From: a virus
UHGV virus genome: UHGV-0848487
DNA: 40,883 nt
Direction: 5' to 3' (one strand)
Below are positions 4,127 through 27,661 of this stretch, piece by piece. Numbering within the stretch: the first letter of the stretch is position 1; every line of letters begins with the position of its first letter. A program made the translations under genes and the position numbers. The notes under the pieces are model-generated. The model ran no database searches. It had not been told where the DNA came from and saw nothing but the letters and a program-made list of their open reading frames with translations.

Positions 4127-4753
4127 TTATCCTCGTTTGCCGTATTTGGCGTTAAGTTTTTGCTGGATTACGTCCGCACCACCGGCCCCGCCAGTAGAAT
4201 TTTTGTTACCGGAAGCCCCGCCGCCGGTTGCTGCATCTGCTTTAATCAGATGCGAAAATGCTTTGTGCTCACGCAGATACTTTTTAAATTGCTCTGCGTC
4301 GGTGGTGATGACATTACCATCTGCACCTGTGAACTTGGTCACAACGTCATCGCCGTCAAATTCGGTCTTGACCATCATAGCGATAATATCCGCTGCGCTC
4401 TCATCAATCAACATTCCAGACAACTGGCTGATAACTGATTTACGTTCCGCGCCGAGGATACGCTCAGCCATTTTGCTAATCTTACCGTCTTTCTCGGCGA
4501 GTACTGGCTCATACTGACTGCGCAACGTTTTCTCGAATGCCTCAAGTTCGCCGTTCTGTTTTGCGCGTTCCTGTTCGGCTTTCAGCTTCGCATCTGCGGC
4601 TTCTTTCGCGGCAGCGGCGGCAGCTTTCTTTTCAGACAAGAGCTTCTCGTTGTTAGCTTTAAGACCGGATACCAGCGCGTCAACTTCTTCTTTGGTAAAC
4701 GTGGTCTTAGTCTCTTGTTGTTCGATAGTTTCGTCTTTCACTTCTTCGCTCAT
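4127..4753 (-). CDS. capsid scaffolding protein
   Basis: Acidic, Ala/Lys/Glu-rich coiled-coil protein directly upstream of capsid gene; preferred start ATG 4753 (MSEEVKDET) after GGGGA. Confidence 0.55.
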   Translation of the reverse strand: MSEEVKDETIEQQETKTTFTKEEVDALVSGLKANNEKLLSEKKAAAAAAKEAADAKLKAEQERAKQNGELEAFEKTLRSQYEPVLAEKDGKISKMAERILGAERKSVISQLSGMLIDESAADIIAMMVKTEFDGDDVVTKFTGADGNVITTDAEQFKKYLREHKAFSHLIKADAATGGGASGNKNSTGGAGGADVIQQKLNAKYGKRG

Positions 4754-5328: not shown

Positions 5329-5352
5329 GTTTCCCCTTTCTCGATAAGTAAA

Positions 5353-5372
5353 GCCCCGCCTTAAAGCGGGGC
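5353..5372 (-). terminator. hairpin GCCCCGC-loop-GCGGGGC followed by TTTAC, upstream of Rz
   Basis: Stem-loop read on minus strand; near-identical element in opposite orientation at 16780..16802. Confidence 0.4.
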
Positions 5373-5648
5373 GCTAGTCCTTATCATTTAAACATAGAAA
5401 CGGCGTAATCTCAGTAAACCAGTTACTTTTTACACAAGCAATAGAGTATGGCCCTTCCGAACGCGTCAGCGTAACTACACTCAGGACTTACGTCCCGCTC
5501 CGTTACCTGCCCGCGCCGCGGTCGCTTGTTCATACTTCACAAGCTCAGGTGGAGCTTAGCACATTTTTGGTGAAAAGTCAACTATTCGAATAGTTTATTC
5601 CAACATTTACAATTGAGTGGAATGACTGGAATAATCACAGGCACTAAA

Positions 5649-5666
5649 AAGCCCCTTTCGGGGCTT
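5649..5666. terminator. intrinsic terminator hairpin (bidirectional-looking)
   Basis: AAGCCCC-tttc-GGGGCTT flanked by A5 on plus side (U-tract on minus strand) just downstream of the 153-aa gene. Confidence 0.6.
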
Positions 5667-5670
5667 CAGT

Positions 5671-7218: not shown

Positions 7219-7234
7219 AGCCCCTTTCGGGGCT
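7219..7234 (-). terminator. hairpin AGCCCC-tttc-GGGGCT between portal and MuF-like genes
   Basis: Same GCCCC-TTTC-GGGGC core as 5649..5666; weak U-tract on minus strand (TTCTT). Confidence 0.35.
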
Positions 7235-10600: not shown

Positions 10601-10624
10601 AGAAAAGCCCTCGGTAGAGGGCTT
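10601..10624 (-). terminator. intrinsic terminator separating early small-gene block from late operon
   Basis: AAGCCCTC-ggta-GAGGGCTT with U-tract on minus strand. Confidence 0.55.
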
Positions 10625-11882: not shown

Positions 11883-12034
11883 TTCTTCTCTCCCCACATG
11901 CGATTGAGATACTTGTTCTTGTCCGGCCCAGGGAAACTGTTACGTTTCATCAGTTCCTCGCGTGTCGGGAACGGAGTGTGACTTACTTTACGACCTACGC
12001 GTAACGGTTGGCTTATCTGACCTTGTTCGCTCAT
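11879..12034 (-). CDS. hypothetical protein (51 aa)
   Basis: ATG 12032-12034 after GGAGAG; ends ...GEKK with ATGA overlap; under track cutoff. Confidence 0.3.
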   Translation of the reverse strand: MSEQGQISQPLRVGRKVSHTPFPTREELMKRNSFPGPDKNKYLNRMWGEKK

Positions 12035-12180
12035 TTCTTCTCTCCTGCATAAGCTGCTTTCAGTGTCTGCATCGCGGCGAACCAGAACGCGTCCGCAGGA
12101 ATGCTGTTGCTCAGGTTACTAACGGCGATGCGTGCCATCAGTTGCGCATCTTTGAATGCTTCGGTATCTGTGATTTTCAT
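12031..12180 (-). CDS. hypothetical protein (49 aa)
   Basis: ATG 12178-12180 after GGAG; ends ...GEKK; shares 15-nt junction repeat with neighbour. Confidence 0.3.
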   Translation of the reverse strand: MKITDTEAFKDAQLMARIAVSNLSNSIPADAFWFAAMQTLKAAYAGEKK

Positions 12181-12213
12181 CTTCTCTACTCCGTTCTCGT
12201 TGTCGATGGAGTA

Positions 12214-12242
12214 AATATAATTGGTGTGAGAGTAATAGTCAA
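12214..12242 (-). promoter_or_regulatory. sigma70-like promoter TTGACT-N17-TATATT (minus strand)
   Basis: Read on minus strand upstream of the 12180 gene block. Confidence 0.4.
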
Positions 12243-12271
12243 CTAGTCATTGCGGAAGATAGATAAAAAAA

Positions 12272-12296
12272 ATCCCGGCTGGGTCAGGGCCGGGAT
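12272..12296 (-). terminator. strong intrinsic terminator
   Basis: ATCCCGGC-9 nt loop-GCCGGGAT followed by 7-8 U on minus strand. Confidence 0.7.
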
Positions 12297-12375
12297 AAAA
12301 CTGGAGAGCAGAGGGATGGAACAGGAGGTGATTTAAGTATCGTCGGATTAGTCTCAGGTGTCAATTGGTAAAATA

Positions 12376-12400
12376 AAACCCGAATTCGCGGTCCGGGTTT
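12376..12400 (-). terminator. intrinsic terminator downstream of endolysin
   Basis: AAACCCG-11 nt loop-CGGGTTT followed by TATTTTA on minus strand. Confidence 0.45.
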
Positions 12401-12529
12401 CGGTCATAAGCCCCTGAACCCTACGCAGTCTCCACCGCTTGGGCTGCTGCTTCAGGTTTACCAGGGCTTAGTATGCAAATACGAAAAACTTGGCCTGACC
12501 ATAATACTAAACGCCTTCGTATTCGTCCA

Positions 12530-13033
12530 TCATTTAACTGCCCTCCCGATAGCTTCAGCCTCTCGCCACGGTTTACCGTCGAACAGCGCCAGACGTCCGG
12601 CAACACGTCGACGTAGACCAAGCACAGGCTCGAGTTTACCTGTTTTCGGGTTGCGCTGGTTAATAAACTGACTCATCTTGTGCCGTAAGGTAGGGATGTC
12701 ACCCTGCCGTAGTGCCTTACCGGTTCCGGTATTAGCTGCGATAACACCAGTTCCTGCGTTGAACACCAGGTCAACAACAGCATCAAACTGAGCCTGGGTA
12801 AGTGACGGATGTGCCACCTCGTCGACCGCTTTCACCGCCCACTGCATATCGCGGTTCAGTAACAGCAGCCCCTGGCCCTCAGTAATCTTCTGTCCTTCGT
12901 ACACATCCGGCCCGGTATGGCCCCAGCCGATAGTCCAGTATTTTTCGTTCTTTGTTGCTTTGTATGCAGTTCCGCGGAACCCTTCGAACGCTGCGGTAAA
13001 ATGCGATCCATTATCTGAAATGTTTCGAGACAC
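12530..13033 (-). CDS. endolysin, glycoside hydrolase family 24 (T4/P22-type lysozyme)
   Basis: Motifs FEGFRGTAY ... TIGWGHTG ... LTQAQFDAVVDLVFNAG match phage lysozyme catalytic Glu/Asp/Thr region and helical core. Confidence 0.9.
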   Translation of the reverse strand: MSRNISDNGSHFTAAFEGFRGTAYKATKNEKYWTIGWGHTGPDVYEGQKITEGQGLLLLNRDMQWAVKAVDEVAHPSLTQAQFDAVVDLVFNAGTGVIAANTGTGKALRQGDIPTLRHKMSQFINQRNPKTGKLEPVLGLRRRVAGRLALFDGKPWREAEAIGRAVK

Positions 13034-14122: not shown

Positions 14123-14301
14123 CACTCCACCCCTTCCACACGTGTAATTGACCCGCAGTTCGCGCACTCGACATAATCCGGGAACTGGTCTTTGTATTTC
14201 TGCAACTCGGCTTCGAGTTTCACGTAAGCGCTATATAAGACCCAGTGTCCTTCATCATACGGGGCGACAAAACCGCCTTGTAATAAATATCTCTGTACCA
14301 T
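14122..14301 (-). CDS. hypothetical CxxC protein (59 aa)
   Basis: ATG 14299-14301 after AGGGGAAG; contains ECANCG motif; under track cutoff. Confidence 0.35.
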   Translation of the reverse strand: MVQRYLLQGGFVAPYDEGHWVLYSAYVKLEAELQKYKDQFPDYVECANCGSITRVEGVE

Positions 14302-16472: not shown

Positions 16473-16506
16473 AACCCTCACTCCTCTGTCTCGTTCCGAT
16501 AAGTGA

Positions 16507-16535
16507 ATAGTATCCTATTATGTTGGGGCGTGCAA
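16507..16535 (-). promoter_or_regulatory. sigma70-like promoter TTGCAC-N17-TACTAT (minus strand) overlapping GAATAG palindrome
   Basis: Minus strand TTGCACgccccaacataataggaTACTATtcactta, about 25 nt upstream of the 16472 gene. Confidence 0.5.
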
Positions 16536-16594
16536 GAGATTAGTTACGTTGCCGTTGTGATTCTTTCGTTTCTTAAAGGAGTACGCAACGCAGT

Positions 16595-16614
16595 GGGTGG
16601 GCGTTAGCCCACCC
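16595..16614. promoter_or_regulatory. GC-rich 8-bp hairpin GGGTGGGC-gtta-GCCCACCC in early intergenic region
   Basis: Perfect stem, no U-tract on either strand. Confidence 0.3.
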
Positions 16615-16779
16615 CAGCGGAGTGAAGTACTCTCTACCTCACTCACGGCAACTATAGAAACTTTTAATTATCAGTGACTTATGAAGGAGGGTAAAATTTA
16701 AATAGACGGGGGCTTTCTTGCCACTTGCTGTTACTGGGATGAAACTTAGATACTAACGTTACCAAGAGTACTGTTTAGC

Positions 16780-16802
16780 GCCCCGCTTTAGGGCGGGGCT
16801 TT
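16780..16802 (+). terminator. hairpin GCCCCGC-loop-GCGGGGC followed by TTTA
   Basis: Near-identical to the element at 5353..5372 but in opposite orientation. Confidence 0.35.
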
Positions 16803-16956
16803 AAGTACCCGAGACTTAAGAATGATGTTTCTAAGTAATTCTGAATTAAGGTCCTTCGATACATTGATTTTACAGCTACATTTTATTTTGTCAATAGGTT
16901 GTGTTTGGCTATTGTAGGTGTTATAGTTGTTTCACTTGATAAAGAGGGCACGTAAA

Positions 16957-17136
16957 ATGACACAGAAAGAAGTAGCAGACTTAATCGGAGTTTCTCCTAT
17001 GACGCTTAATCGCTGGCTGCGGTCGGGTAAGTTCCCTGAGTGTTGCCGGGTTATTAACGGCTACCGTCAGCCGGGTACGTTTGACCGCGCTACTGTGGAG
17101 GCGTGGATTAAGGAGAACGTAAAAGATGCTAACTAA
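16957..17136 (+). CDS. AlpA-like HTH transcriptional regulator
   Basis: Preferred ATG 16957 after AGAGGG; sequence EVADLIGVSPMTLNRWLRSGKFPE ... TVEAWIKEN matches AlpA/excisionase-like family pattern. Confidence 0.65.
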   Translation: MTQKEVADLIGVSPMTLNRWLRSGKFPECCRVINGYRQPGTFDRATVEAWIKENVKDAN

Positions 17137-27527: not shown

Positions 27528-27661
27528 ACATCATAGCCCCGATTCCCGCATTGCAAAAACGTATCAAGGAACTCGAAGAGGAGGTTCTACGACTACGACA
27601 ACAGAGGGATGCCGCTAATGCACAACTGGCGTTTGTACTGGAGAAGCTATCAGAAGAGTAG
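27524..27661 (+). CDS. small coiled-coil peptide (45 aa), hypothetical
   Basis: ATGA overlap with helicase stop; under track cutoff. Confidence 0.3.
   Translation: MNIIAPIPALQKRIKELEEEVLRLRQQRDAANAQLAFVLEKLSEE

Follow-up and report, generated by a model that had tools for sequence, protein, structure and literature searches.

We propose that an intergenic unit on the minus strand of the virus genome UHGV-0848487 (40,883 nucleotides, the whole stretch of DNA analyzed here and called the window below) is a gene for a pyrimidine-rich small RNA (sRNA) of ∼64 nt, which would carry an Hfq-type 3' module and act by base pairing; we put this reading at a little under an even chance. That a discrete RNA of some kind is made from the unit is probable. 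According to our proposal, host sigma-70 RNA polymerase would initiate around position 12329 and terminate in a U tract around 12266, yielding a ∼64-nt noncoding RNA. Its 5' domain would be single stranded and C/U rich, and a U-rich stretch would lead into the terminator hairpin and the poly-U tail. We infer that this RNA accumulates and binds Hfq, and that CUCCUG, at its very 5' end, and CAUCCCUCU pair with purine-rich ribosome-binding regions of mRNAs, the translation of which would be repressed. The candidate targets are the leader of the adjacent operon, transcribed from a second promoter (P2), and host mRNAs. A small regulatory RNA was among the options raised by an initial sequence-only reading of this region, and it is now favored by the conservation of the promoter, compensation in the terminator, conserved sequence blocks, and the survival of the unit in insertion variants, but no specific target was found.

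The window is a near-complete genome of a Kagunavirus-like E. coli siphophage of the subfamily Guernseyvirinae. On the minus strand, the gene order (5' to 3') runs from a small-gene block through two holin genes and the endolysin gene to a 349-nt intergenic region (12181 to 12529), downstream of which lie about 12 small genes, including those for a DUF2737 protein and a NinH-like protein, and then terS, terL, portal, and head genes. The endolysin homologues of Schulenburg, K1ind1, and wksl3 are annotated as such, and the window translation aligns with theirs. The flanking genes are as follows.

12530 to 13033, minus strand: endolysin gene (from the ORF list), last of the holin-holin-endolysin cassette and upstream of the unit.
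12031 to 12180, minus strand: first gene of the downstream small-gene block, 49 aa, phrog_2180, with its ATG at 12180.

The intergenic region contains a 184-nt module in which a promoter (P1), the short RNA, a terminator (T2), P2, and a 5' leader follow one another. The elements of the RNA unit itself are listed here.

12336 to 12364, minus strand: sigma-70 promoter P1, TTGACA-17 bp-GATACT, 10 of 12 matches in the promoter scan.
Between the −10 hexamer and 12329, minus strand: 6-nt discriminator TAAATC, from the window sequence.
12329, minus strand: predicted transcription start, an A located 7 nt past the −10 hexamer, from promoter geometry.
12297 to 12329, minus strand: C/U-rich 5' domain predicted to be unstructured (unpaired in the minimum free energy [MFE] and centroid structures), with the candidate seed ACCUCCUGUUCCAUCCCUCUGCUCUCCAGUUUU.
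12265 to 12296, minus strand: intrinsic terminator T2, with an 8-bp G+C-rich stem, a 9-nt loop (CCUGACCCA), and a U8 tail, from the fold.
12265 to 12329, minus strand: predicted small RNA of ∼64 nt, from P1, the start, the C/U domain, and T2 taken together.

The minus-strand TTGACA-N17-GATACT promoter that the sequence-only reading had placed at 12336 to 12364 is present as described, in the sequence as in our promoter scan. Between 9 and 16 kb, P1 ties for the best site with P2 (12242 to 12214), a plus-strand site at 14148, and a minus-strand site at 10601, and comparison with the lambda record showed that lambda PL has the very hexamers and spacing of P1. PL is a strong promoter that needs no aid. 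A 10/12 match alone is not rare, since the 7 kb scanned contained 11 sites with at least 9/12 matches versus 7.3 ± 2.3 in shuffled sequences; the case beyond chance therefore comes from conservation. The hexamers and the 17-bp spacing are retained across about 60 distinct variants, with TTGACAC and (G/C)ATACT essentially invariant and hexamer substitutions limited to two single-base changes in the −35 element (TTGACG in variant L034 and TTGGCA in L171). The spacer depends on the clade and is wholly different in L031, L156, and L171, where the −10 hexamer is CATACT. The 6 nt following the −10 are variable (TAAATC, AAACCT, GGTGTC, or GGTTTC), and conservation picks up again at the predicted +1 with (A/G)C(C)UCCUG. 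At the level of sequence, the unit appears to have, as an Hfq-type sRNA would need, a promoter of its own (TTGACA-17-GATACT) whose hexamers and spacing are kept. The frequency of promoter-like matches (11 versus 7.3 expected in the 7 kb) speaks for another explanation, a chance pairing of a promoter-like string with the terminator of the lysis operon, in which P1 is functionless. But the hexamers and spacing of P1 are kept in two genera and about 60 variants over variable spacers, and the module is far more conserved than the adjoining synonymous sites; we give this explanation almost no credence.

Elsewhere in the window, positions ∼16500 to 17100 form an AT-rich (41.7% GC) divergent promoter region that coincides with the minimum of the cumulative GC skew. 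The HTH gene within it starts at 16927 on the plus strand, and the best promoter match in the first 20 kb of the window is TTGACA-16-TAAAAT at 16894 (minus strand). This is likely an early control or origin region. A role of the unit at 12.3 kb as a replication origin or primer was considered but finds no support, as the GC-skew minimum and the AT-rich region are at 16 to 17 kb.

The strong terminator previously noticed at 12272 to 12296 also stood up to analysis. It consists of the hairpin ATCCCGGC / CCTGACCCA / GCCGGGAT (12296 to 12272) followed by T8 (12272 to 12265), and the predicted RNA folds into an unpaired 5' domain plus this terminator hairpin at −13.8 kcal/mol. Our terminator scan missed T2 because its loop limit was 8 and the T2 loop has 9 bases. 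In the GenBank records of Schulenburg, Sciku, and Shelanagig, a "terminator" annotation is found at T2, and nothing more is annotated at the unit. Covariation analysis in relatives, which the sequence-only reading had recommended, revealed a compensatory C-G to U-A change in the T2 stem (11 of 26 sequences), and Jerseyvirus sequences have extra A-U pairs; this evidence consists of few events, since the diversity is essentially that of two clades. In the stem, 91% of the cells are paired, compared with at most 52% with slid partners. Every variant has a U tract of 7 to 17 residues, and the loop CUGACCC is largely conserved.

As had been reported for this region, no ORF of at least 30 aa overlaps 12265 to 12364 on either strand. 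The record of the Salmonella phage Shelanagig has an annotated 67-aa coding sequence (gp59, 759 to 962 of L004) that overlaps P1, the small RNA, the terminator annotated there, and, upstream, the endolysin gene's 3' end. Because neither the window nor the other clades have an equivalent ORF, gp59 was probably called in error. A plus-strand reading, with AGGAGGTGAT as the Shine-Dalgarno (SD) sequence of a lost gene, was rejected: it lacks both a start codon after the string and a promoter on the plus strand, and Jerseyvirus does not conserve the string.

The location of the unit between two terminators, as first described, is true of this window, where a further hairpin lies upstream of P1.

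About 12370 to 12402, minus strand: T1, an upstream hairpin plus TTTTATTTT, from sequence and fold.

T1 ends an optional block of ∼165 nt (12365 to 12529, minus strand) that extends from the endolysin stop codon to P1, has a fold z-score of −1.4, and contains a weak promoter-like site, TGGACG-17-TATTAT, at 12529 to 12501. Only some Kagunavirus genomes have this block, among them the window, Schulenburg, Bas76, and K1ind1. Jerseyvirus and many Kagunavirus genomes lack it, the endolysin stop abutting P1, and other genomes have different sequences at this site, such as a small ORF in L156.

The 33-nt tract that follows the discriminator is almost pure pyrimidine (ACCTCCTGTTCCATCCCTCTGCTCTCCAGTTTT), and the first 33 to 35 nt of the RNA are unpaired in both the MFE and the centroid structures. 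Four blocks are conserved across both genera, with indels between them. CUCCUG marks the 5' end, CAUCCCUCU and GCUC follow, and UUUAU lies just ahead of the hairpin, reaching from the 3' end of the 5' domain across the first 2 nt of the hairpin. The separation of the blocks by indels suggests linear single-stranded motifs rather than structure, and the presence of single-base variants within the candidate seed blocks indicates that the constraint on them is moderate. The modeled structure, with its unpaired 5' end and with CUCCUG and CAUCCCUCU kept between genera, would thus offer an accessible conserved seed. Directly 5' of the hairpin lies a U-rich motif, which is GUUUUAU in Kagunavirus, CUUUAU in Jerseyvirus, or GUUUCU. 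The Hfq-binding module of enterobacterial sRNAs comprises a U-rich stretch, a hairpin, and at least 7 U (PMC12205990), and the 3' arrangement of the predicted RNA matches this module in sequence. The whole window gave no match to Rfam 15 at the gathering threshold, and a search of 12150 to 12560 in E-value mode gave only subthreshold matches driven by the terminator (best, RF02278, 25 bits versus a threshold of 50). Neither a homologue of the small RNA nor a host sRNA that it might mimic was found in 5,426 complete E. coli genomes.

We evaluated the conservation of the region in relatives. The 1 kb around the unit is ∼92% identical to Schulenburg, Shashou, Snoke, and Sciku and, as a query, matches 445 phage records, chiefly of Salmonella Jerseyvirus and Escherichia Kagunavirus. 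With only the intergenic region as the query, a sensitive search recovered the module from 444 phage records, all of the Kagunavirus or Jerseyvirus type. Among these are more than 300 Salmonella Jerseyvirus genomes that align with the first 138 to 184 nt of the query; the longest alignments, at ∼75% identity, correspond to 12181 to 12364 of the window and reach from the ATG to the final base of the −35 element. The 184-nt module is ∼80% identical between the genera, compared with 41 to 46% at the third codon positions of the adjacent endolysin gene, which indicates purifying selection on this noncoding module. To keep the test of P1 unbiased, loci were gathered by the P2 anchor alone (46 viral-contig and 55 metagenome loci) and, together with the GenBank loci, gave the ∼60 distinct versions. 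The sequence-only reading would have been abandoned for want of conservation in relatives; the region is clearly conserved, and the objection falls.

In Jerseyvirus, the 184-nt module constitutes the whole spacer between the endolysin gene and the next gene, and the endolysin stop is found a few bases before the −35 element, which implies that T2 also terminates the lysis operon. In these phages and in many Kagunavirus genomes, the RNA would use the lysis-operon terminator and a promoter placed right after the endolysin stop, the layout of a 3'-untranslated region (3'-UTR)-type sRNA with its own promoter. We found at least 5 unrelated contexts upstream of the −35 element and at least 10 different N termini after the ATG, so the module forms a conserved cassette with mosaic DNA on both sides, and since homology ends exactly at the ATG and at the −35 element of P1, it is also a recombination boundary. 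No comparable module was found upstream of the terminase genes of distant relatives identified via TerL (40 to 63% identity), and the module thus appears specific to Kagunavirus and Jerseyvirus. One such relative, L096, has at ∼4278 to 4649, upstream of its terminase genes, a tRNA-like 3' segment (GGTTCGAGTCC...), with a terminator and then a promoter after it.

Hairpin-forming insertions occur right after the −10 hexamer of P1 in two natural variants, both of which keep P1 and T2, as expected if P1 to T2 is maintained as a transcription unit. The first, at 81 to 180 of L061 (equivalent to 2963 to 3062 of L081), is a ∼100-nt element with 13-bp inverted repeats (TTAGGCGAGTAGT / ACTACTCGCCTAA) that forms a long hairpin (z = −2.9); in the fold of L061, the C/U tract is retained and unpaired beside the new 5' hairpin. 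The second, in L156, is an independent insert of ∼78 nt, and there part of the C/U tract is lost, CUCUGCUCUCCAGUUUUAUCC being deleted between ATCCC repeats.

A second noncoding stretch of the window drew our attention. The 342-nt intergenic region at 5329 to 5670 (minus strand), between the head-decoration gene and an i-spanin-like gene, contains a terminator hairpin (∼5665 to 5645), a P2-like promoter (TAGTTGACT-N17-TAAGCT), ∼200 noncoding nt, and a second hairpin, GCCCCGC..GCGGGGC (5372 to 5353). It is 95 to 99.7% identical in 179 of 181 phage records, in Escherichia and Salmonella phages alike, far above the nearby coding DNA, which is only ∼70% identical between genera. It has no Rfam family, and its fold z-score is only −1.3. 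We regard it as a candidate ultraconserved noncoding RNA or regulatory block.

Past T2, the module continues with the promoter and leader of the next operon.

12214 to 12242, minus strand: P2, second sigma-70 promoter, TTGACT-17 bp-TATATT, 10 of 12 matches in the promoter scan.
12181 to 12207, minus strand: 27-nt 5' leader of the P2 operon, CAUCGACAACGAGAACGGAGUAGAGAAG, near-invariant.
12192 to 12184, minus strand: SD sequence GGAGUAGAG in the P2 leader, from the sequence.

P2 begins 22 bp past the U tract of T2, which places the tract at about −64 to −57 relative to the P2 start, and its TAGTTGACTA and ATTATATTTA are invariant across all variants. The leader SD is read in the intergenic sequence as GGAGTAGAG, ahead of the first-gene ATG at 12180. 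The stretch from 12181 to 12212 (CATCGACAACGAGAACGGAGTAGAG) is nearly invariant in both genera, with at least 10 unrelated N termini following the ATG.

This arrangement permits a reading in which the module is a boundary element acting in cis. T2 would be mainly the terminator of the lysis operon, its T tract would aid P2, the C/U tract would serve as an anti-SD in cis, and the short RNA itself would have a minor role or none. RNA reading through T2, from the lysis operon or from P1, would fold with the tract masking the first-gene SD and AUG, and only the P2 mRNA would be translated. Several observations are consistent with this. In the MFE structure of the window read-through RNA (from the start to the ATG; z-score, −1.9), CAUC.CCUCUGCUCU pairs with GGAGUAGAG..GAUG; 13 to 20 long-range pairs between tract and leader form in all 49 of the 49 distinct variants, those with altered leaders included; the position facing the U of GGAGUAGAG is G or A and never a pyrimidine; and the leader is near-invariant despite the swapped first gene. 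But complementarity between a C/U tract and a purine-rich initiation region is generic, and it must be read as such here since seed and leader do not covary, even if an interaction of the two in cis or in trans is plausible. Furthermore, T2 looks strong, so little read-through is expected, and the conservation of the P1 hexamers and spacing in nearly all variants is left unexplained. We consider the cis reading unlikely, yet the first to keep in mind after the sRNA.

The sequence-only reading had also raised an attenuator upstream of the next gene block, and a regulated version of it can be modeled on PR'-6S-tR' of lambda. Constitutive transcription from P1 would end at T2 until the polymerase is rendered resistant to termination by a factor from the phage or the host, and the resistant polymerase would then cross T2 and the internal terminators of the downstream operon of small, terminase, and structural genes. 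The block that leads to terS, terL, portal, and head genes is indeed headed by a strong promoter with a ∼64-nt transcript and a strong terminator, and terminator-like hairpins are found inside this block, e.g., at 7234 to 7219 and 5665 to 5645. Just 5' of the T2 hairpin, GCUCUCC / GCUCCUUUA loosely resembles boxA, which we take to be GCUCUUUA, and the hairpin loop is, as mentioned, largely conserved. Against these points, P2 lies past T2, and transcription from it would escape the control. Neither Q, N, nor any other antiterminator family was detected among the 20 neighboring ORFs (Pfam and PHROGs) or in the annotations of Schulenburg and wksl3. The initial transcribed region, being variable, shows no conserved −10-like pause element; the promoter spacer, where a Q-binding site would be expected, is not conserved; and the RNA has no put-like structure. 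The strong P2 past the terminator and the lack of an antiterminator gene among these ORFs and annotations thus weaken the attenuator proposal, which we judge quite unlikely.

A third proposal started from the resemblance of the 5' end of the transcript to the 3' end of 16S rRNA and made the RNA a mimic or decoy titrating SD sequences or ribosome-associated factors globally. The string is indeed there: in the window, AUCACCUCCU is identical over 10 consecutive bases to the 3' terminus of E. coli 16S rRNA (GAUCACCUCCUUA). But initiation at 12329, the likeliest start, would drop AUC and leave just ACCUCCU in the RNA. Moreover, the exact core CACCUCCU is confined to Kagunavirus, while Jerseyvirus has GCUCCUG and, within Kagunavirus, L041 and L046 have CACUCCUUG. 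The 8-mer CACCTCCT occurs once in the ∼82 kb of the two-strand window, where chance would give ∼1.25 occurrences; taken alone, the anti-SD resemblance thus lacks significance. Finally, the phage mRNAs themselves depend on strong SDs. A global ribosome decoy is therefore very improbable.

Returning to the independent sRNA, we searched for its targets with RNAduplex. Over all annotated initiation regions of Schulenburg and wksl3, the real seed pairs no better than shuffled seeds; in Schulenburg, the minimum was −25.4 versus −25.9 ± 3.0 for shuffled seeds and the mean was −14.6 versus −14.0 ± 0.7. The P2 leader ranks only 9th of 85 and 11th of 63 in these comparisons. Over the whole window and both strands, it scores −18.6 kcal/mol, compared with a mean of −10.9 ± 4.8. 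A permutation test detected no covariation of seed and leader within clades, own pairs being equal to cross pairs. The longest conserved block has as its complement AGAGGGAUG, of which the window contains a single copy, in a small ORF (27603 to 27611); this was judged a chance occurrence.

A broader form of anti-SD-like action can also be envisaged. An abundant, immediately expressed sRNA might act on purine-rich ribosome-binding sites both in trans (host mRNAs and the P2 leader) and in cis (read-through RNA), as a translation insulator or shutoff device at the boundary between the lysis operon and the next operon in a whole virulent subfamily. P1-T2 would then be a portable sRNA platform that gains 5' hairpin modules, as in L061 and L156. 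We see this extension as a long shot.

We found no description of an sRNA for Jerseyvirus or Kagunavirus in the literature, and the table of a 2025 review of phage sRNAs has no entry for either genus (PMC12197685). The sole Kagunavirus transcriptome sequencing paper, a time course with K1B4, reports gene-level classes, without intergenic resolution (PMC12645636). Jerseyvirus and Kagunavirus are among the most often isolated phages of Salmonella and E. coli and are used in biocontrol and therapy cocktails. If confirmed, a conserved sRNA of virulent siphophages would join a list dominated by temperate phages, and it would provide a compact and readily mutated handle (one −10 hexamer and one seed) on posttranscriptional control at the boundary between the lysis operon and the next. 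The module as a sharp recombination boundary, with mosaic DNA on either side, is also useful for understanding and engineering these genomes.

From its sequence, the unit most likely encodes an sRNA of a known type that had not previously been described for this phage group. The lambda OOP RNA, the sar RNA of P22, and the c4 RNA of phage P1 are 60- to 80-nt phage RNAs with their own promoter and an intrinsic terminator (PMC12197685), as predicted here; those RNAs, however, are antisense or cis-encoded to their targets, and our RNA is antisense to no gene. Identity with sar was rejected, as the subthreshold match (15 bits versus 43) sits on the T1 hairpin and not on the small RNA. The predicted RNA resembles RF02278, a betaproteobacterial toxic small RNA (25 bits; E = 0.0056), in its ∼60-nt length, UCUCC-type motifs, CCCGG-type terminator hairpin, and U tail, and members of that family prove toxic upon cloning in E. 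coli (PMC4603805). The predicted RNA does not belong to it, however: the score is half of the 50-bit threshold, the alignment is carried by the terminator, and the taxonomic range is different. With CyaR, the seed of which we take to be the anti-SD-like ...CACCUCCUUA..., the RNA would share a single-stranded pyrimidine-rich seed resembling the anti-SD. The same holds for sRNAs with C-rich unstructured seeds that target G-rich SDs, which have been described (PMC12205990). It differs from CyaR in giving no CyaR match in Rfam, in having its seed at the extreme 5' end, and in that the exact anti-SD string is not conserved.

The closest parallels concern layout. Both lambda 6S RNA and the 74-nt StxS associate with Hfq, have mRNA partners, and are short transcripts terminated just past the constitutive phage promoter PR' (PMC7547250; 10.1101/2024.10.31.621285). 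Like them, the unit combines a strong sigma-70 promoter with a strong terminator within tens of bases at an operon boundary by the lysis genes. Unlike them, it has no sequence similarity to these RNAs, belongs to a virulent phage, has the lysis genes upstream rather than downstream, and is followed by P2 past the terminator. Thus, of the lambda PR'-tR' arrangement, we recovered the promoter-then-terminator order at the head of a late operon, but neither a Q gene, among the 20 neighboring ORFs and in two annotated relatives, nor pause or binding elements, nor the lack of a further promoter. DapZ and MicL exemplify 3'-UTR-derived sRNAs that have their own promoter and a terminator in common with the mRNA. 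The window departs from this type in that the endolysin gene and P1 are separated by the ∼165-nt block, which has a hairpin of its own, and in that the RNA is phage encoded. In Jerseyvirus and many Kagunavirus genomes, the layout is that of DapZ and MicL, with P1 a few bases past the endolysin stop and a terminator common to the lysis operon.
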